A stretch of DNA of 41,341 bases, taken from UHGV virus genome UHGV-0069723. One strand, 5' to 3'. The position numbers and the translations under genes were made by a program. This DNA is from a virus. Below the pieces are notes generated by a model. It saw only the letters and a list, made by a program, of their open reading frames with translations, searched no databases and was not told where the DNA came from. This document shows positions 2,966-37,969 of this stretch, piece after piece (the stretch's first letter is position 1; each line of letters begins with the position of its first letter).

Positions 2966-3988
2966 TTACTCGAATTCTGGACGCATATCGTTAAGCGTCA
3001 TCATGAATTTTTGGTGATATTCATCACCGAGCTTTTCAGCCATGGTGTTAATTTCATTTTCAGCGCGCTTGAACATCGTTTTTGCATCTTCAGCAGATGG
3101 ATCCAGGCTATTAAGTATCGCGATGATATATTCTCGAGCTTCTTCTCGTTCTGAATCTGAAATTGGCGACAGGTGTTGACGCTCATCGTCAACTACGGAA
3201 TATTCACCAGTGATAACAGCTGCGTTATCTTGGCTAAGTCCAGCTTCAGCGCGCTCATCCATAACAACAGCCTTCTGCATTTCAATAGAAACAGGAAGAT
3301 ATTTGAACAGTCGGCGAATTACTGTTTTTTTAGCCATCTCATCGAAGTGATCAACCCATGGGCCACTGCTACCGGCTTTGCTCAGTGCACGAACTTTCTC
3401 AACGTCTGCCCGGCTCATAACTTCAAATTGGACTCCGCCATCTTTCAGTCGTGCAACGGCGTAAACGTGCGTTAATTCTCCGCGGTCACCTGTTTCGCAA
3501 GGTAAATGCTCGAGCGTTTCTTCCAGGCCGTATGAGTAGCTGAATTTGTCGTTTGTATGTACGGTACGAGCCGAGATACTCAGGATCTGCCCAGAGCGGC
3601 GGGCAAGGTCAATCATTCCGCGATAGCCGATAATCAGCTGTGCTTCTGTAGATACGGTTTCCCATCTTCCATTTACTTTCTGGCGTTTGTCGAACGGTAT
3701 CAGGTAAGCGTGTCCAAGAGCTCCGCCTGGTTCAAGACCCAATTGGGCACATTGCATAATTGCCCCCAGGAAGCTGGCTTGGTCGCATGATGCAAGTTTT
3801 GGAACCTTTCTGATCTCTGTGGTTGCTATGCGCGCCAGACGGTCTGCTGTCATGTGCTTTGGAAGTGCCAAAGCCATCTGAGCTTTAATTTTTGGGTCTG
3901 CCAGAAGTCCGGCCAGAGTTGTTGGTTTCTCATTATGATGTGCAACTTGGTTACCGGTAGCCGCTGCCTTAAGTGCATTGATAGACAT
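2966..3988 (-). CDS. recT: RecT-family single-strand annealing recombinase
   Basis: 340 aa; RecT-like core (SFLGAIMQCAQLGLEPGG...AYLIPF...); immediately downstream of the YqaJ-type exonuclease gene. Confidence 0.9.
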   Translation of the reverse strand: MSINALKAAATGNQVAHHNEKPTTLAGLLADPKIKAQMALALPKHMTADRLARIATTEIRKVPKLASCDQASFLGAIMQCAQLGLEPGGALGHAYLIPFDKRQKVNGRWETVSTEAQLIIGYRGMIDLARRSGQILSISARTVHTNDKFSYSYGLEETLEHLPCETGDRGELTHVYAVARLKDGGVQFEVMSRADVEKVRALSKAGSSGPWVDHFDEMAKKTVIRRLFKYLPVSIEMQKAVVMDERAEAGLSQDNAAVITGEYSVVDDERQHLSPISDSEREEAREYIIAILNSLDPSAEDAKTMFKRAENEINTMAEKLGDEYHQKFMMTLNDMRPEFE

Positions 3989-3997
3989 TTTTTCTCC

Positions 3998-4897
3998 TTA
4001 CTTCATTCTGAAGACGCGTTGTGTCGTTGTTGTTTTGAATTTTTCGAATAACTCAGGGTGTACTGACTGGAATAGCTTCTGGTCGAATCTGTTGCTGATC
4101 TGAGATTTCCATGTGCAGAGCGGCTTTCCGTCCAGGGTCAGGACTGAGTGCTCTTGCATGTACATCTTCAGCTTCTCTTCTGATATAGCTATTTCTTCTT
4201 CCAGTGATTTTCTGCGTGATTTCATGTCTCGTAGATCGTTGAATAGTGCGAGTGCCTTTCCGTCAGCCTCGATACTTGTCCCGGCATCTTTCTCAAACAT
4301 CAGCGATACATCGCTTACGCTGGTAGCTTCCGGCGGGTTAAGATTTTTCACTCGGTCCCAGAAAGCGATTTCTTTTTCTAAGATCGCCTGGATAGTTTCT
4401 TCATCACGCTCAACCCGATAGATTCGGAAGTCGTCGCCACCGATAAGCACACCGAAAACGCATACCTGTTTGTTTGTAACCATCAACCCGTGCATGGCCT
4501 GGGCCGTGTAATGCACAGGAATTGCATCTGTCTGGATTTCTCCCCATTCTTTGGCCTTGAACGGACTAACTGTTTTGATCTCAATGTTCTCGCCTGACGC
4601 TGCTTCTGCATCGATCTCAGCTGCAATAAAATCGTAATCACGGTGGATATAGCGGTTTCCGCGATGAACGATTTCCATCCCTGTTTCCTCAGAAAGCAGG
4701 TCTATTACGTATGGCTCCATACGCTGGCCACGCGTGAAAACTTTCTGCTTGCTTTGGTCTACTGGTTTGACACGTGGCTGGACCTTATCCAGATAAACCT
4801 CAAGCGGGGTGCGCCATGGGCTAATTCCAAGAATCCCTGCAACATCGCTTCCTCCGATGTATTTTGTTCTATCCATGATTCCAGCGTTCCGCATCAT
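3998..4897 (-). CDS. YqaJ-type (lambda Exo/RecE-like) recombination exonuclease
   Basis: 299 aa; N-terminal RTKYIGGSDVAGILGISPWRTPLEVY typical of the YqaJ viral recombinase nuclease domain; paired with recT. Start could be 4897 or the Met at 4876. Confidence 0.85.
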   Translation of the reverse strand: MMRNAGIMDRTKYIGGSDVAGILGISPWRTPLEVYLDKVQPRVKPVDQSKQKVFTRGQRMEPYVIDLLSEETGMEIVHRGNRYIHRDYDFIAAEIDAEAASGENIEIKTVSPFKAKEWGEIQTDAIPVHYTAQAMHGLMVTNKQVCVFGVLIGGDDFRIYRVERDEETIQAILEKEIAFWDRVKNLNPPEATSVSDVSLMFEKDAGTSIEADGKALALFNDLRDMKSRRKSLEEEIAISEEKLKMYMQEHSVLTLDGKPLCTWKSQISNRFDQKLFQSVHPELFEKFKTTTTQRVFRMK

Positions 4898-5193
4898 GCC
4901 GCGTCCCTCTGCCCATCAAGCTGATCCGCCAGATCCCAGCGCGCTATAATTGCCATTGCCTCGCGCCGGTAGGCATCCATCAGTTCTTCGAACTCAGGGC
5001 TGTCTTTAGCAGCCTCCAGCACTTCCTGACGAACGCCTTTGCCTGTTACAACGTCGAAAGTTGAGGACAGTTGATGAAGTCGGATGCTCTCAATCAGTTC
5101 AACTTGTCGGTCATATAGCTGTTCTGACAGGCGGTAGTCCTTGTCGAATGCCAGCATGATTTTTTGAAGATTTTTCTGCTGATTAACGTTCAT
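4894..5193 (-). CDS. Hypothetical early protein
   Basis: 99 aa from ATG 5193 (MNVNQQ...) with GGGAGGG RBS; stop overlaps the exonuclease start (ATGATG). Confidence 0.55.
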   Translation of the reverse strand: MNVNQQKNLQKIMLAFDKDYRLSEQLYDRQVELIESIRLHQLSSTFDVVTGKGVRQEVLEAAKDSPEFEELMDAYRREAMAIIARWDLADQLDGQRDAA

Positions 5194-5195
5194 TA

Positions 5196-5348
5196 TCAGC
5201 CCTCCCATATCTCATTATCGTTGGCTACATCGCGAGCTTCTTTGCTGACGAAAGCCCACTTAATGCCTTCCTGTAAGGTGCGGAACTTCCAGCTCATGAA
5301 TCCGCATGCAGTAACGCAGTACCAACCGTTGATGATTTTCCACTGCAT
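5196..5348 (-). CDS. Small hypothetical protein, first gene of leftward early operon
   Basis: Hand-translated 50 aa ORF (MQWKIINGWYCVTACGF...) not in the ORF track; GAGGT RBS 8 nt upstream; stop 2 nt before the next gene start. Confidence 0.4.
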   Translation of the reverse strand: MQWKIINGWYCVTACGFMSWKFRTLQEGIKWAFVSKEARDVANDNEIWEG

Positions 5349-5367
5349 AACTTGTTACCTCGGTCTG

Positions 5368-5444
5368 TTACCGTTGAGGTAATAATTATGCTTATTTGGT
5401 TTGGTGTCAATAGATATGAGTTAAAAAAATTACCCGTAAGGTAA
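5368..5444. promoter_or_regulatory. Left operator region: two perfect TTACC-N5-GGTAA sites (5368-5382, 5430-5444) flanking the leftward promoter
   Basis: TTACCGTTGAGGTAA and TTACCCGTAAGGTAA; on the minus strand a perfect TTGACA -35 (5405-5410) lies between them. Confidence 0.55.
5382..5410 (-). promoter_or_regulatory. Candidate sigma70 early-left promoter (PL-like)
   Basis: Minus-strand TTGACA, 16-17 bp spacer, TAATTA/ATAATT -10; about 35 bp upstream of the first leftward ORF. Confidence 0.4.
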
Positions 5445-5452
5445 TCTATCTG

Positions 5453-5480
5453 GCAATAAAAAAGCCGCCATGAGGCGGCT
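5453..5480 (-). terminator. Rho-independent terminator downstream of the repressor gene
   Basis: Minus-strand hairpin AGCCGCC-TCAT-GGCGGCT followed by TTTTTTATT. Confidence 0.6.
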
Positions 5481-5501
5481 TACTTACTGAAAAATATAGT
5501 T

Positions 5502-6141: not shown

Positions 6142-6204
6142 TTACCCAACAGGTAAATGCACCTCATAGGTAACTATCCTTGATTTTTGTTACCTTATGG
6201 GTGA
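6142..6204. promoter_or_regulatory. Right operator cluster: three tandem TTACC-N5-GGTAA-type sites
   Basis: TTACCCAACAGGTAA (6142-6156, perfect), GCACCTCATAGGTAA (6159-6173, half-site), TTACCTTATGGGTGA (6190-6204, one mismatch); candidate -35 TTGATT at 6180-6185. Confidence 0.6.
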
Positions 6205-6240
6205 ATATTTATTATCTGAAATAAATATCAGGCAATAGCT

Positions 6241-8472: not shown

Positions 8473-8549
8473 TTACCTTCTGGGTAACAAAGTATTCTAA
8501 ACTCTATTGATTTCGTGTCTTATGTGGTTTTTAATTACCTCAGGGGTAA
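8473..8549. promoter_or_regulatory. Two perfect TTACC-N5-GGTAA sites (8473-8487, 8535-8549) with candidate promoters
   Basis: TTACCTTCTGGGTAA and TTACCTCAGGGGTAA; TTGATA (8465-8470) and TTGATT/TTTAAT promoter-like hexamers interleaved; second site ends 3 nt before the ATG at 8553. Confidence 0.55.
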
Positions 8550-14201: not shown

Positions 14202-14278
14202 TGGTGTGGCATGCAGGATTCGAACCTGCGACCAACCGCTTAGAAGGCGGTTGCTCTGTCCAACTGAGCTAATGCCAC
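14202..14278 (-). tRNA. tRNA-Arg (anticodon UCU, reads AGA), phage-encoded, CCA encoded
   Basis: Hand-folded cloverleaf: acceptor GTGGCAT/ATGCCAC, D-arm GCTC-AGTTGGACA-GAGC, anticodon stem ACCGC/GCGGT with loop CTTCTAA, T-arm GCAGG-TTCGAAT-CCTGC, discriminator A plus CCA; 77 nt. Confidence 0.9.
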
Positions 14279-14615: not shown

Positions 14616-14705
14616 TAATTCGCGCGTTAAATGTCAACTGCCTACGATAAATAAATCATATGTGGTTAAATTGGTAATAATTTAATTGCGTACGGAGTCA
14701 TTGAT

Positions 14706-23898: not shown

Positions 23899-26412
23899 AT
23901 GCCAGTTGTACCAACAACATCGGGCCGTCAGGTTCAAAGCAGAGGGATTTCGACGCAGGGATTCTCATCGTTTCAGACACCAAATGTCGGTGATGTACTT
24001 GGCGATGTTGCAGAGCAATATGCAGGTATTATTGCGCAGGCAAAACAGCGTGCGAATGTTGCTATGGCTCAGGATGCTTCTCTTAGCTTAAGCCAGATAA
24101 GCAGCGATCTGCTGAATAACCCTGAAACAGGTTTGCTTAACCTGAAAGGGAAAAATGCTATTGGAAAAGGTCAGGAGTATACGCAGCAGTTTGATGCTCA
24201 GGTCGAACAACTGGCTATGTCGCTGCTGGATGAACAGGCTCGTAATGCTTTCATGCAGCAGGCGCAGCAGCAGCGCATTCAGTTCACTACGCAGGCCGGG
24301 CGGCACGAGATAGGGCAAATAAATGCCTACGAAGAAGGCCAGTTTCAGGCTACGCTGCTGAACAATGGTAAAAATGCCGCAGCATTGTATGGCGACAACG
24401 CCGCATACGTATTGGCTAATAAGCAAACTTTCCAGCAAATTGAGGATTACGGCATTGCACATGGCTGGAGTGACGAGCAAATCCAGGCCAAGAAAATCGA
24501 GTTTAAAGAAGCAACAGCAAAAGCAACTGCTCAAAATGCTATTGGAGCAAACTATCTTCAGGTAAGACAGCAAAACGGCGAGTTAAGCGATACTGCTGCT
24601 GGTTCTCGCCGTGCTGTAGCAGATAGTGGCTCTTCCGATCGTACCCGCGGTATACGCAACAATAACCCCGGCAATCTTGAATACAGCAAAACTAATCCGT
24701 GGGTTGGGCAGACTGGTGATGATGGTCGCTTTGCCAAATTCGAAACCCCTGAACACGGTATTCGTGCATTAGGGCGGAACCTGATGTCGTATCAGCAGCA
24801 GGGTATTGATACCGTCAGCGAGATAATTAATCGCTGGGCACCGCCTACTGATAAAAATGACACTATGTCGTATATCAAAGCAGTGTGCGAACAACTTGGC
24901 GTTTCTGCTGATGAGCCTCTCGATGCATCAAATCCTGATACCCTGAAGGCGCTTTGTGCAGCCATTATCCATCATGAAAACGGTAGCCAGCCATACAGTG
25001 ATCAGCAGTTAACTGCAGGTGTTAGTGCTGCGCTGGGGCTTTCTCAGCTACCGACAAAAAATAAACGTTATACCGGTGTAGCCTGGTTCGATGCTTTAAG
25101 TGAATCAGATCAGGCCAGCGTGTTGCGACAGACTGATGCACTAGCCAGACAACAGCAGGCTGAATATAAAACGATGCTCGACAGCCGGGTTCGCGATGCG
25201 ACGGCTGCGTATATGCGTGGCATTGAATTTCCTAACCCACCTGGTGAGGATGATTTTATTGCAGCTTATGGAGTCAGAGAAGGAAACCTGCGATATACCG
25301 AGTTTAAGAATACGCAGATCGCCGGACAGTATATAGGCTCTTTCCGCAACATGCCGACAAGCAGCATTACAGCATATGTTGAGCAATTACGCCCGGATAC
25401 TGGTGATACAGGGGAGGGGTATGCGGCACGCGCAACTCTTTATGACAACGTTGTTTCGGCTGCAAATCAGGTGATAAAGCAGCGGCAGTCGGATCCTGTG
25501 CAGTTCTCTCTTGCCTCCGGACAGGCAAAGCCTATCGACATGAGCAATAAGGATAACTTTGGACAGAGCGTTGCCTTGCGTGCCGCTCAGGTCAGTGACC
25601 TTGCTAAGTCATATGGCACTCCACTGACGTTCTTTTCCAAAGACGAGGCCAATCAGATCGGTGTTTTCTTTCGTGATGCTCCAGTTTCCCAACAGGCAGC
25701 ATATCTCGATACCATCAGGCAGAGCACTGGTGGTGGGCAGGTGTATATGTCAGCACTACAGCAGATCAGTGCCAACGCTCCATCTGCTGCCGTTGCCGGG
25801 ATACTGATGGATAAGCCTGGTGGTATTTTGGCAGAAAAAAACTGGTTTAATCCGGATGTTTCCGTGTCTCCTGAAACCGCTGCGCAGACAATTCTTGCTG
25901 GCGCGGCGGCTCGTAAAGGTACTGATGATGCGAAAGGTATTCCGATGCCTAAAGATGCTGATCTTCGCCTTGAGTTTTCTGACATGGTGAAGGATGCATT
26001 TGCTGGTGACGCTCAGGGCGCATCAATGGCATACGAGATCGCAAAGGATTATTACGCTGGTGTGATGGCGAAAAAAGGCGTGGTATCAGGCGAAATTGAC
26101 AATGATGTCTGGAAACAGGCTGTTAACGTAGCTACAGGTGGCGTGCATGACTATAACGGAATGGGGAATGTCCTTTTGCCGTGGGGAATGTCTGCAGAGC
26201 AATTCGATAAGCAGGTTAATCAGGCTTGGAATGAACAAGTTGTCGGCTCAGGGATAAAAACACCGCCTGGTCAGTATGGTTTGCAAAGTTACGGCGATAG
26301 TCAGTACCTGGTGAAACTTGGTACTGGTTATCTGTTGAAAGATGATGGTTCTCCCGTTGTTCTTAATCTGACACAGAAGCGTCAGAGATTCTCCGGAGAT
26401 ATTCCGCAATGA
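23899..26412 (+). CDS. Large internal virion / ejection protein (possible cell-wall-degrading domain)
   Basis: 837 aa; segment GIRNNNPGNLEYSKTNPWVGQTGDDGRFAKFETPEHGIRALGRNL resembles motifs I associate with virion-associated muralytic domains (tentative). Confidence 0.6.
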   Translation: MPVVPTTSGRQVQSRGISTQGFSSFQTPNVGDVLGDVAEQYAGIIAQAKQRANVAMAQDASLSLSQISSDLLNNPETGLLNLKGKNAIGKGQEYTQQFDAQVEQLAMSLLDEQARNAFMQQAQQQRIQFTTQAGRHEIGQINAYEEGQFQATLLNNGKNAAALYGDNAAYVLANKQTFQQIEDYGIAHGWSDEQIQAKKIEFKEATAKATAQNAIGANYLQVRQQNGELSDTAAGSRRAVADSGSSDRTRGIRNNNPGNLEYSKTNPWVGQTGDDGRFAKFETPEHGIRALGRNLMSYQQQGIDTVSEIINRWAPPTDKNDTMSYIKAVCEQLGVSADEPLDASNPDTLKALCAAIIHHENGSQPYSDQQLTAGVSAALGLSQLPTKNKRYTGVAWFDALSESDQASVLRQTDALARQQQAEYKTMLDSRVRDATAAYMRGIEFPNPPGEDDFIAAYGVREGNLRYTEFKNTQIAGQYIGSFRNMPTSSITAYVEQLRPDTGDTGEGYAARATLYDNVVSAANQVIKQRQSDPVQFSLASGQAKPIDMSNKDNFGQSVALRAAQVSDLAKSYGTPLTFFSKDEANQIGVFFRDAPVSQQAAYLDTIRQSTGGGQVYMSALQQISANAPSAAVAGILMDKPGGILAEKNWFNPDVSVSPETAAQTILAGAAARKGTDDAKGIPMPKDADLRLEFSDMVKDAFAGDAQGASMAYEIAKDYYAGVMAKKGVVSGEIDNDVWKQAVNVATGGVHDYNGMGNVLLPWGMSAEQFDKQVNQAWNEQVVGSGIKTPPGQYGLQSYGDSQYLVKLGTGYLLKDDGSPVVLNLTQKRQRFSGDIPQ

Positions 26413-31401: not shown

Positions 31402-31905
31402 TTATACTATTGAGTTTAATGATATCTTGTCCTTAATATCATTAAGTTTGCCATATATCTTTTTTGCATAAAAATCAGCCTCCTCAATAAACCTCGACTT
31501 CTCATTATCAGGCATATTTTTGAAGGTATGTGCACATGTATATTGAGAGTAGTATTTGTGAAATTCTTGATACGCATTATTGAGTTCTTGTAAGTCTTTT
31601 TTATACTCAGGAAGGTATATGTTTATTAGCATTTCCATCGTTTGCAACGGATTCGCTCTTGATACGTCAAATTTACTATCAGAGTGGTATCTGGCATTTT
31701 TTACGAAATTGAGAATGGTAATTGTGCTTGAATCTATGACTTTTTTAGTAAGTATACAATTTATAAATAATTGCTCGCGTTTATCCCTTAATATTTTTTG
31801 TCGCTCTAATCTTATGCTGTTTTTGTATCCTTGTCCTGCATTTATATAAGTGGAAACTATAGCAATAACTGCACCTATCAATGCGCCTAAGATAGTATTA
31901 TCCAT
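31402..31905 (-). CDS. Membrane-anchored hypothetical protein (cassette gene C)
   Basis: 167 aa from ATG 31905 with AGGTGG RBS; one N-terminal hydrophobic helix (NTILGALIGAVIAIVSTYI) then a Lys/Tyr-rich soluble domain; visibly AT-rich; no motif I recognise. Confidence 0.6.
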   Translation of the reverse strand: MDNTILGALIGAVIAIVSTYINAGQGYKNSIRLERQKILRDKREQLFINCILTKKVIDSSTITILNFVKNARYHSDSKFDVSRANPLQTMEMLINIYLPEYKKDLQELNNAYQEFHKYYSQYTCAHTFKNMPDNEKSRFIEEADFYAKKIYGKLNDIKDKISLNSIV

Positions 31906-31930
31906 ATAAGCCACCTAAACTGCGTAAAAT

Positions 31931-32794
31931 TTATTTTCTGCCACTTCTGTAGTATATGTTGCGACCATTTTTGGTCACATTAACAACATGACCCTTTGTT
32001 TCTACTTTGTTATTTGTTGCCTTATATACTTCAAAGTCAAACCATGATATATGACTTATTTCGTCTATAGATACCATAATTTCTAGACCTTGAACTTTCT
32101 TTTTGCTTATCCCTTTTATCGCAGCACTGCGCTTAATTTGGATTTCACCTGGGTAAGCGTTTGTAAATGTAACAGATAAATTTTCTTTGTTTCTGTACCC
32201 TGACATTAAAGGAACAAAAGATATGTGTTGGTGTGGCCCTTGATTTTCCGTTGGCTCACCAGAACCATTTATTATTCCAACGTATACTTTATTTGATGAT
32301 AAAGTAATTAACATTGGTTTCTTAGGATCTGATTCGATTGCATCAAGCAATAGCAAATCTAAAGAACCCTGGGAGTACGTTTTTCGCAATACCCTAGCTT
32401 TCATTGCCTCTGATATTTTGTCATAAATATCACGTTTATAAAAACAACCTAAAAGAAGATCTTTTAGCCAAACAAAAGATACATAACACAAAGAGAAGCA
32501 AATTGATGTGACTGACAGAAGAAGTAGCCACATGTAAATTCTATCTGTTTCTGGTTTTGACGTTACATTAAAAGTTTCCACCATATCGTGAACTAGGTGA
32601 AAATCAGGATATTTATATTTTATAAATGCGGCAATTATTACCGAAGCAACAAGGCAATATGTACCTAATGCAGCTACTTTCATATAAAGAAGCTGGCCTT
32701 CATGTCGGTATAAACGGAAATAATGATACTGGTTAGCGGTTATCATAATATAACCACTAACCAGAATGGGGATAATTAGAAGAGCTAACAACAC
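31931..32794 (-). CDS. Polytopic membrane protein with C-terminal soluble domain (cassette gene B)
   Basis: 287 aa; three to four hydrophobic segments in the first ~125 aa; probable GTG start overlapping gene A's stop by 1 nt; visibly AT-rich; no motif I recognise. Confidence 0.65.
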   Translation of the reverse strand: MLLALLIIPILVSGYIMITANQYHYFRLYRHEGQLLYMKVAALGTYCLVASVIIAAFIKYKYPDFHLVHDMVETFNVTSKPETDRIYMWLLLLSVTSICFSLCYVSFVWLKDLLLGCFYKRDIYDKISEAMKARVLRKTYSQGSLDLLLLDAIESDPKKPMLITLSSNKVYVGIINGSGEPTENQGPHQHISFVPLMSGYRNKENLSVTFTNAYPGEIQIKRSAAIKGISKKKVQGLEIMVSIDEISHISWFDFEVYKATNNKVETKGHVVNVTKNGRNIYYRSGRK

Positions 32795-33003
32795 TATTTC
32801 CTTACAGTGGCAAGATCCTGTTTAACGATTGCAGCAGCGAGACGACGCATCTCCTTAACCTCAGGAAGCTCAGAAATTTGCTGTGATGAGATATACACAC
32901 CACCACGCTTGTTAACCTGCGCTGACGCCGGAACTTCTGCATTTTTTGCCTGAGGGCTGGGTGCATTATCCCTCGTTTTTGTACGAGCGAACCAAAATCC
33001 CAT
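32794..33003 (-). CDS. Small hypothetical protein (cassette gene A)
   Basis: 69 aa; strong GGAGGAGA RBS; ordinary GC unlike B and C; promoter-like TTGCAG-17-TACTAT and an operator site directly upstream. Confidence 0.5.
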   Translation of the reverse strand: MGFWFARTKTRDNAPSPQAKNAEVPASAQVNKRGGVYISSQQISELPEVKEMRRLAAAIVKQDLATVRK

Positions 33004-33029: not shown

Positions 33030-33044
33030 TTACCTTTAAGGTAA
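33030..33044. promoter_or_regulatory. Perfect TTACC-N5-GGTAA site overlapping the cassette promoter -10/+1
   Basis: TTACCTTTAAGGTAA on the plus strand; on the minus strand it abuts the TACTAT -10 candidate (33044-33049). Confidence 0.5.
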
Positions 33045-33810: not shown

Positions 33811-34079
33811 AGTGGTTACCTTTTAGTCTGGTTAATCACCACTACCGACGCCAATCGGTTGGTGGTGAACTGTGCAGGGTTGGCGTAACCGGCTAAAAGG
33901 ACCCGGCGCACCTTTCGGTGCCCCCACACAGCCCACCATAATACGAATGTGGCCGTGCTATACGCATAAAAAAACCGCTTGCGCGGTGAATGCGCCTTTT
34001 AGTAATCCGGGACGCCAATCCCGGCACTGGATTTTGCCAGTGCCCGATTACTATGGCACAAGAGGAGTGCGATGTAAAT

Positions 34080-34094
34080 TTACCGCAAAGGTAA
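34080..34094. promoter_or_regulatory. Perfect TTACC-N5-GGTAA site upstream of the Bro-N gene
   Basis: TTACCGCAAAGGTAA, within the ~315-bp untranslated region between the two antirepressor-type genes. Confidence 0.45.
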
Positions 34095-34383: not shown

Positions 34384-34404
34384 CTTATCTTCTCCATGTA
34401 ATAA

Positions 34405-34420
34405 CTGTATATTTATACAG
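34405..34420. promoter_or_regulatory. LexA (SOS) box CTGTATATTTATACAG
   Basis: Matches CTGT-N8-ACAG with an AT-rich spacer and perfect dyad symmetry; 22 bp upstream of the small antirepressor-like ORF, overlapping its likely -10. Confidence 0.7.
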
Positions 34421-34459
34421 TAGCAAATAATTTGTTTGCTATCCAGCACGTTTTGCAAA

Positions 34460-34474: not shown

Positions 34475-34578
34475 TATCTATTCGTATTTACAGTCTTTCT
34501 ATCCATATGTGGTTTTTCAGGTAATAGAATAACCAGATATGCGGCGCAACGGGTGCTGCGACTATCTGGAGATTTAAC

Positions 34579-37564: not shown

Positions 37565-37969
37565 ATGTCAGCCCATCTAACTACTGATTCTTTAAATCAA
37601 TGGCTTAGTGTGAGCTCTCTTGCTGCAGTTATCGTAGGCGTTCCGCCAGAGGTGGCGCTCGGTGCTCTTGCTGGTGCGGTAATTTTTGTTACCTCTGCGG
37701 TAGAGTACCCAATTCATCGTCGCGTACTCTTATCGATGCTTAGCTTTCTCTGTGGACTTCTTTTCTACAAACCAGCAGCATCAATTCTTATCGGCATAGC
37801 CAGCCTGATCCCTACCATCACGCAGGACTCTTTTGAAAAAGGGATTGTTTTCTCTGCTGGCGCATTCGTGTCAGCAATTGTCGCTGTGCGTATTGGTATA
37901 TGGCTCTACCACCGTTCAGACAATCCACGCGATTTAATTCCGGGGAGAAAAGACGATGGTAACGCATGA
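37565..37969 (+). CDS. Holin-like polytopic membrane protein
   Basis: 134 aa from ATG 37565 (track ORF starts at GTG 37556); several hydrophobic segments; first gene of the lysis cassette. Confidence 0.5.
   Translation: MSAHLTTDSLNQWLSVSSLAAVIVGVPPEVALGALAGAVIFVTSAVEYPIHRRVLLSMLSFLCGLLFYKPAASILIGIASLIPTITQDSFEKGIVFSAGAFVSAIVAVRIGIWLYHRSDNPRDLIPGRKDDGNA

Follow-up and report, generated by a model that had tools for sequence, protein, structure and literature searches.

In the Salmonella phage SPC32H, the repressor Rep is reportedly inactivated by a LexA-controlled antirepressor, Ant, and PDB entries 5D50 and 5D4Z belong to this switch, the solved structure of Rep being 5D50. Rep is described, in a secondary source, as tetrameric when bound to DNA, with DNA-binding pairs drawn from different dimers, and Ant as breaking this tetramer (PMC9638917). 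For the C-terminal domain of Rep, a DNA-looping tetramerization fold has been proposed, and the mechanism of repression is termed not extensively characterized (PMC9986798). The GenBank record of the related phage epsilon15 (AY150271.2) carries the predicted annotation 'protein_bind: repressor, lysogeny' at seven sites; three of these fall in the region orthologous to the one studied here and include the orthologs of both of its operators, while the rest precede the terminase gene, gp3, the tailspike gene and a RuvC-like gene.

Here we analyse a stretch of 41,341 nucleotides, virus genome UHGV-0069723 (the window), following up an earlier note made from its sequence alone. The note proposed a leftward early promoter, here called PL, bracketed by two operators and followed by a 50-aa first gene. 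Our main reading, to which we assign a probability of roughly 0.8, is that the PL locus is the ordinary, repressor-controlled leftward early promoter of a very common E. coli prophage.

Results

The prophage and its Rep/Ant switch

Between positions 4800 and 6900, the window shares 98% DNA identity with Escherichia phage phiV10 and its close relatives, and about 77% with another Uetakevirus, Enterobacter phage Tyrion. Judged by sequence, the window is an epsilon15/phiV10-type (Uetakevirus) prophage; it is contained complete, with a P4-type integrase gene (171-1421) at the start. Of 5,426 complete E. coli genomes, 558 carried the 371 bases around the PL locus. A tRNA gene (14205-14278, minus strand) is found inside the prophage, in the interval between terminase and portal.

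The protein encoded just upstream of PL aligns over its full length (residues 1-190) with SPC32H Rep (PDB 5D50_A, E=3.5e-42), and a Pfam scan returned HTH families only, with no S24/LexA-type autocleavage (peptidase) domain. Ant is likewise recognizable (Table 1), and Rep has diverged from SPC32H far more than Ant has (147.6 bits over 190 residues versus 160.8 bits over 83). The LexA box upstream of ant is the sole such site in the window (reported on both strands), compared with 0.03 expected. By homology, these components (Rep and Ant homologs, a LexA box and a repressor lacking an autocleavage domain) identify a switch of the SPC32H Rep/Ant type. In ZX5, a 98%-identical phage, overexpression of Rep left no free phage and decreased holin and endolysin transcripts by more than 99.9%; the study overexpressed both repressor and antirepressor, and mapped no operators or transcription starts (PMC9782041).

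The window also encodes a second antirepressor, a Bro-N/Ant-C fusion, behind C4 and isrK RNAs. Together these look like a P1 immI-like module that would be under Rep control, separate from the LexA-controlled Ant. A perfect Rep operator and a predicted promoter, TTGCAA-17-TATATT (34122-34094), are located ahead of isrK/C4.

The leftward promoter and its operators

The perfect TTGACA and the AT-rich -10 that the earlier note had placed on the minus strand were found where it had located them; the -10 reads AATTAT, and the pair matches the consensus at 10 of 12 positions, with a 17-nt spacer that falls within the 16-18 nt of sigma-70 promoters. Hexamer pairs with 10 of 12 matches occur three times in the window compared with about eight in random sequence, so that the score alone is not significant and support for the promoter comes from its context and conservation. 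The two perfect palindromes said to bracket it were also recovered, reading TTACCTTACGGGTAA for O_L2 (5444-5430) and TTACCTCAACGGTAA for O_L1 (5382-5368) on the minus strand, and their arms are conserved. The last T of the -10 is the first T of O_L1, and transcription would start at around 5375. The repressor is predicted to occupy both palindromes, and the Cro-like protein could bind the same sites.

On the upstream side, the T-tract between O_L2 and the -35 is possibly a UP-like or bendable element, and the terminator of the rep transcript insulates PL from that transcript. A candidate plus-strand terminator at 5352-5385 was discarded as an artefact, as its stem is formed by O_L1 and the GGTAA half-site downstream of it, and a real T-run is lacking.

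Table 1. Coordinates of the features described at the PL locus and elsewhere in the window.
Feature	Position	Strand	Details
YqaJ-type exonuclease and RecT genes	2966-4897	minus	Pfam YqaJ 1.1e-23, RecT 4.4e-57; PL operon
Second operon gene, 99 aa (gp38; PHROG 856)	4894-5193	minus	translationally coupled, TGAtaATG
50-aa gene (PHROG 898; PhiV10p39 / epsilon15 gp37)	5196-5348	minus	ATG 5348
Shine-Dalgarno GAGGT	5357-5361	minus	8 nt ahead of ATG 5348; conserved in all relatives
Proximal operator O_L1	5368-5382	strandless	perfect palindrome, centre on predicted +1 (~5375)
-10 hexamer AATTAT	5387-5382	minus	AATTAT or GATTAT, equal spacing, in all relatives
-35 hexamer TTGACA	5410-5405	minus	from sequence; TTGACA or TTGACT in 7/7 relatives
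T-tract	5423-5429	minus	O_L2/-35 interval; kept in Tyrion, BUCT554, epsilon15, SPC32H, PAT1
Distal operator O_L2	5430-5444	strandless	perfect palindrome, centre at -62
Intrinsic terminator of rep transcript	5462-5481	minus	8-bp stem, 6 GC pairs and T-run; annotated in phiV10
rep, repressor gene, 194 aa	5502-6086	minus	just upstream of PL; Pfam HTH_3 only
Three operator copies, rep/cro divergent region	6142-6204		6142 perfect, 6159 two mismatches, 6190 one mismatch
Second operator-bracketed cassette	8473-8549	plus	upstream of DUF1064 gene
Bro-N/Ant-C fusion antirepressor gene, 231 aa	33115-33810	minus	behind C4 and isrK RNAs
immI-like module	33858-34094	minus	Rfam isrK 33968-34043, C4 antisense RNA 33858-33943
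ant, small antirepressor, 85 aa	34126-34383	minus	PDB 5D50_E, E=4.1e-47
LexA box upstream of ant	34403-34422		one mismatch to consensus

Both hexamers and both operators retain their positions in Tyrion, BUCT554, epsilon15, SPC32H, PAT1 and BUCT711, with diverging spacers and flanks, and O_L1 and O_L2 are 62 bp apart in six genomes and 63 bp apart in one. In 54 distinct E. coli-type sequences, neither the operator arms nor TTGAC varied, whereas the central 5 nt of the operator did. Even in a distant IMG/VR branch, with about 42% identity in the small protein and unalignable flanks, the same palindrome brackets a TTGACA/GATTAT promoter, with the proximal operator displaced by 13 bp to give a spacing of 75 bp (~7.1 turns). 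The operator arms were identical in every relative found. The first scan for related loci retrieved only loci with identical proteins, and further scans beyond these found nothing. Conservation, together with homology to a repressor system that has been characterized, supports the leftward early promoter of the earlier note, its two bracketing operators and its 50-aa first gene.

Regarding the leader, the one found in the Salmonella phages epsilon15 and SPC32H and in the Klebsiella relative BUCT711 is about 75 nt longer (around 2415-2490 in the coordinates of loci L085, L084 and L087), and contains a small hairpin, with a third operator immediately ahead of or at the RBS. In the window, Tyrion and BUCT554, the leader measures 27 nt, and only a GGTAA half-site is present at the position of the third operator. 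The sequence following O_L1 in the window resembles that following the third operator in the long leaders, suggesting a deletion between operator copies.

Operators elsewhere in the window

Two points escaped the earlier note: the repressor is of the SPC32H Rep/Ant type and not lambda CI, and the operator motif is distributed genome-wide. Ten perfect copies of the palindrome TTACC-N5-GGTAA are present in the window compared with 0.01 expected, a number reached by none of 100 shuffled windows. Eight of the ten are located in the 14.5% of the window outside ORFs of at least 110 aa and the other two only within mechanical 5' extensions of ORFs; all ten are effectively intergenic. In the rep/cro divergent region, a predicted rightward promoter (6187-6215) overlaps the third operator copy (6190).

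The second operator-bracketed cassette reproduces the geometry of PL, with an operator, 19 nt, TTGATT, 17 nt and a TTTAAT that overlaps the second operator, and its 62-bp operator spacing is found in phiV10 and epsilon15 as well. The TTTAAT hexamer did not pass as a -10 in the promoter scan. Transcription units of the right arm are each closed by a terminator, after which new operator sites appear; this pattern suggests that a number of promoters are repressed separately, in place of a cascade of antitermination.

Several further observations concern these sites. Four sites share a proximal geometry in which a -10-like hexamer and the operator TTACC overlap by a single T, last in the one and first in the other: 5382 (AATTAT, PL), 11456 (TACTAT, upstream of the terminase gene), 33044 (TACTAT, the 33030 site) and 34094 (TATATT, the immI-like promoter). 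Three copies of the plus-strand motif (c)atATGTGGTT (8522-8529, 14660-14667 and 34507-34514) lie 32-44 nt 3' of a perfect operator and 5 nt ahead of another half-site. This motif, which by count alone is not enriched, is kept at the orthologous promoters of epsilon15, among them the promoter that precedes the lysis genes, and may serve rightward or late promoters as a recognition element. Operators with one mismatch were found just upstream of the integrase gene (114-128; the gene starts at 171) and within the beginning of the lysis region (37689-37703); in epsilon15, a perfect operator at 24704 precedes the lysis genes. Three minus-strand ORFs (69, 287 and 170 aa; 31402-33003) that are absent from phiV10 follow directly on the perfect operator at 33030 and probably represent strain-specific cargo under Rep control.

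The first gene of the operon

The earlier note had described the 50-aa ORF as a first gene with a good RBS downstream of PL, and it stands as such, with its own protein family, a conserved Shine-Dalgarno sequence and a pN/pS of 0.20. It is not an overlooked gene: it is annotated in phiV10 (PhiV10p39), epsilon15 (gp37), SPC32H (SPC32H_040) and RefSeq (WP_001198620.1), and forms PHROG 898. A profile search with its sequence, which the note had suggested, matched this family end to end (E=1.9e-38; residues 1-50 on profile positions 1-50 of 50), and no relatives were found in Pfam, NCBIfam or a PDB profile search. Among 1.84 billion representatives, a profile search retrieved 18 family members, nearly all of them stand-alone proteins of 32-69 aa, and none of the 18 was an informative fusion. 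Conserved residues are G8, V12, T13, G16, S19-W20-K21-F22, W31-A32-F33 and A38. Divergent members do not conserve C11 and C15, and a Cys-based metal or disulfide motif was rejected for this reason. The AlphaFold model, one featureless helix with a pLDDT of 56.6, was unusable. We infer that the product may be an early accessory factor that binds a host or phage protein, much as lambda Kil, CIII or Gam do, and not an RNA-binding antiterminator. For the second gene of the operon, gp38, Foldseek against PDB gave no fold match below E=8.6 (model pLDDT 68).

Proposed mechanism and alternative explanations

In a lysogen, Rep would be made from the gene immediately upstream, with its transcript stopping at 5481-5462, and would sit on both TTACC-N5-GGTAA palindromes, O_L1 spanning the -10 end and the start and O_L2 lying at -62. 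RNA polymerase would thereby be excluded from PL. Upon DNA damage, LexA would leave the ant promoter and Ant would disassemble the Rep tetramer; with the tetramer lost, PL would fire, and its transcript would run without interruption through the 50-aa gene, the 99-aa gene, the exonuclease and RecT genes, and the AlpA-like, PerC-like and methylase genes. As a whole, this mechanism appears likely, given the promoter elements and their conservation, the homology to Rep and Ant, and the coding status of the 50-aa ORF.

Two alternatives concern this first gene. The Tyrion annotation places a gene, gp39, on the plus strand across the same stretch, which would make the 50-aa frame a shadow ORF, and one antisense frame is stop-free, with a pN/pS of 0.37. 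However, it is the frame that shares third positions with the 50-aa frame, whereas the latter, with pairs summed, has both the lowest pN/pS (0.20) of all frames and the highest pS; four other frames of the stretch exceed 1.2. Against relatives, the 50-aa ORF shows a pS of 0.64-0.73 and a pN of 0.05-0.12, and its variable columns are distributed 8/8/21 over the three codon positions. Its ATG, Shine-Dalgarno sequence and stop position are conserved, and PHROG 898 covers its product end to end, whereas the 72-aa product of the opposite-strand ORF (5164-5382) matches no PHROG or anything else; besides, a plus-strand gene here would run into PL and its operators. By these coding signatures the 50-aa ORF is a real gene; we rejected the opposite-strand ORF as a shadow frame, the least credible of the alternatives considered, and Tyrion gp39 is probably a mis-call. 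Hardly more credible is a lambda N-like function for the 50-aa protein, which would modify RNA polymerase at a site in the leader and so allow terminators to be read through. The gene does hold an N-like position, as the first one downstream of a repressor-controlled leftward promoter, and in the long-leader relatives the small hairpin in the PL leader is followed by a T-run. However, the protein is neutral (pI 6.1, two Arg), lacks an arginine-rich motif and matches no Pfam or NCBIfam family; the fold of the 27-nt leader is not significant (z = -1.7) and includes no nut-like structure, and Rfam gave no match at the PL leader. In addition, no intrinsic terminator was found downstream of PL on the minus strand between 1400 and 5400, and the terminators of the right arm precede units with their own operator sites, which is not a read-through design. 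We therefore rejected an N-like protein on its neutral charge, its unstructured leader and the lack of downstream intrinsic terminators. The analogy with N drawn in the earlier note holds for position and fails for protein, leader and terminators; judged by synteny with exo/recT, the position of lambda kil/cIII fits the gene equally well.

A third possibility refines the main explanation of a Rep-repressed PL instead of replacing it: a single Rep tetramer could bridge O_L1 and O_L2, with the resulting 62-bp micro-loop clamping PL until Ant splits the tetramer. The spacing of about 5.9 helical turns, constant in the six relatives and 1 bp longer in one, would be consistent with this, as would the recurrence of the same geometry at a second promoter in the window, in phiV10 and in epsilon15. 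The described tetramer, with its DNA-binding pairs drawn from different dimers (PMC9638917), and a C-terminal domain proposed to support DNA looping (PMC9986798) point in the same direction. However, the 13-bp shift of the proximal operator in the distant branch indicates that phasing is not strict, a 62-bp loop is energetically demanding, operator spacing is in part set anyway by the geometry of the -35 and -10, and two independent Rep tetramers account for the data equally well. We regard the single-tetramer bridge as tentative. The same caution applies to a broader proposal in which the operator bracket, conserved across the genus, could be the natural substrate of the unusual 'trans' Rep tetramer, one tetramer might clamp each early promoter, separate repressed promoters might replace lambda-style antitermination, and the 50-aa protein might be the first effector upon release.

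Discussion

The PL region, its repressor sites and the 50-aa gene are all already publicly annotated and a Rep/Ant crystal structure has been solved, so the discovery value of this locus is small. A correct reading nevertheless serves annotation, as the prophage is so common in complete E. coli genomes: the 50-aa gene should be treated as real, the opposite-strand call in Tyrion as probably wrong, and the label 'N-like' should not be spread. Furthermore, the conserved two-operator bracket offers a concrete, testable DNA substrate for Rep, whose mechanism is little characterized (PMC9986798).

Among known systems, epsilon15 (AY150271.2) and phiV10 share with the window the order of repressor gene, operator, promoter, operator, small gene, gp36/38, exo and RecT, together with the same palindrome arms and the 62-bp operator spacing; for phiV10 this extends to 98% DNA identity. 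Epsilon15, SPC32H and BUCT711 differ from the window in their leader, longer by about 75 nt, and in the third operator before the RBS. SPC32H resembles the window in Rep, Ant, the LexA box at ant and the absence of a RecA-type cleavage domain, whereas the second, larger Bro-N/Ant fusion behind C4 and isrK RNAs sets the window apart.

Lambda PL is similar in that it is leftward, adjoins the repressor gene, is repressed at overlapping sites and transcribes recombination genes. In contrast to lambda, the window has two operators 62 bp apart instead of three adjacent ones, and hence no tripartite operator, its repressor is not an S24 autocleaving CI, and its first gene is not N-like, with neither a nut site nor a downstream intrinsic terminator. 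In phage P1, the operators are 17-mers that lack symmetry, and the C1 repressor is not known to be related to Rep. The likeness of the window to the P1 C1 regulon lies in its organization: a single repressor, operators scattered over the genome at many separate promoters and an immI-like c4-ant module.
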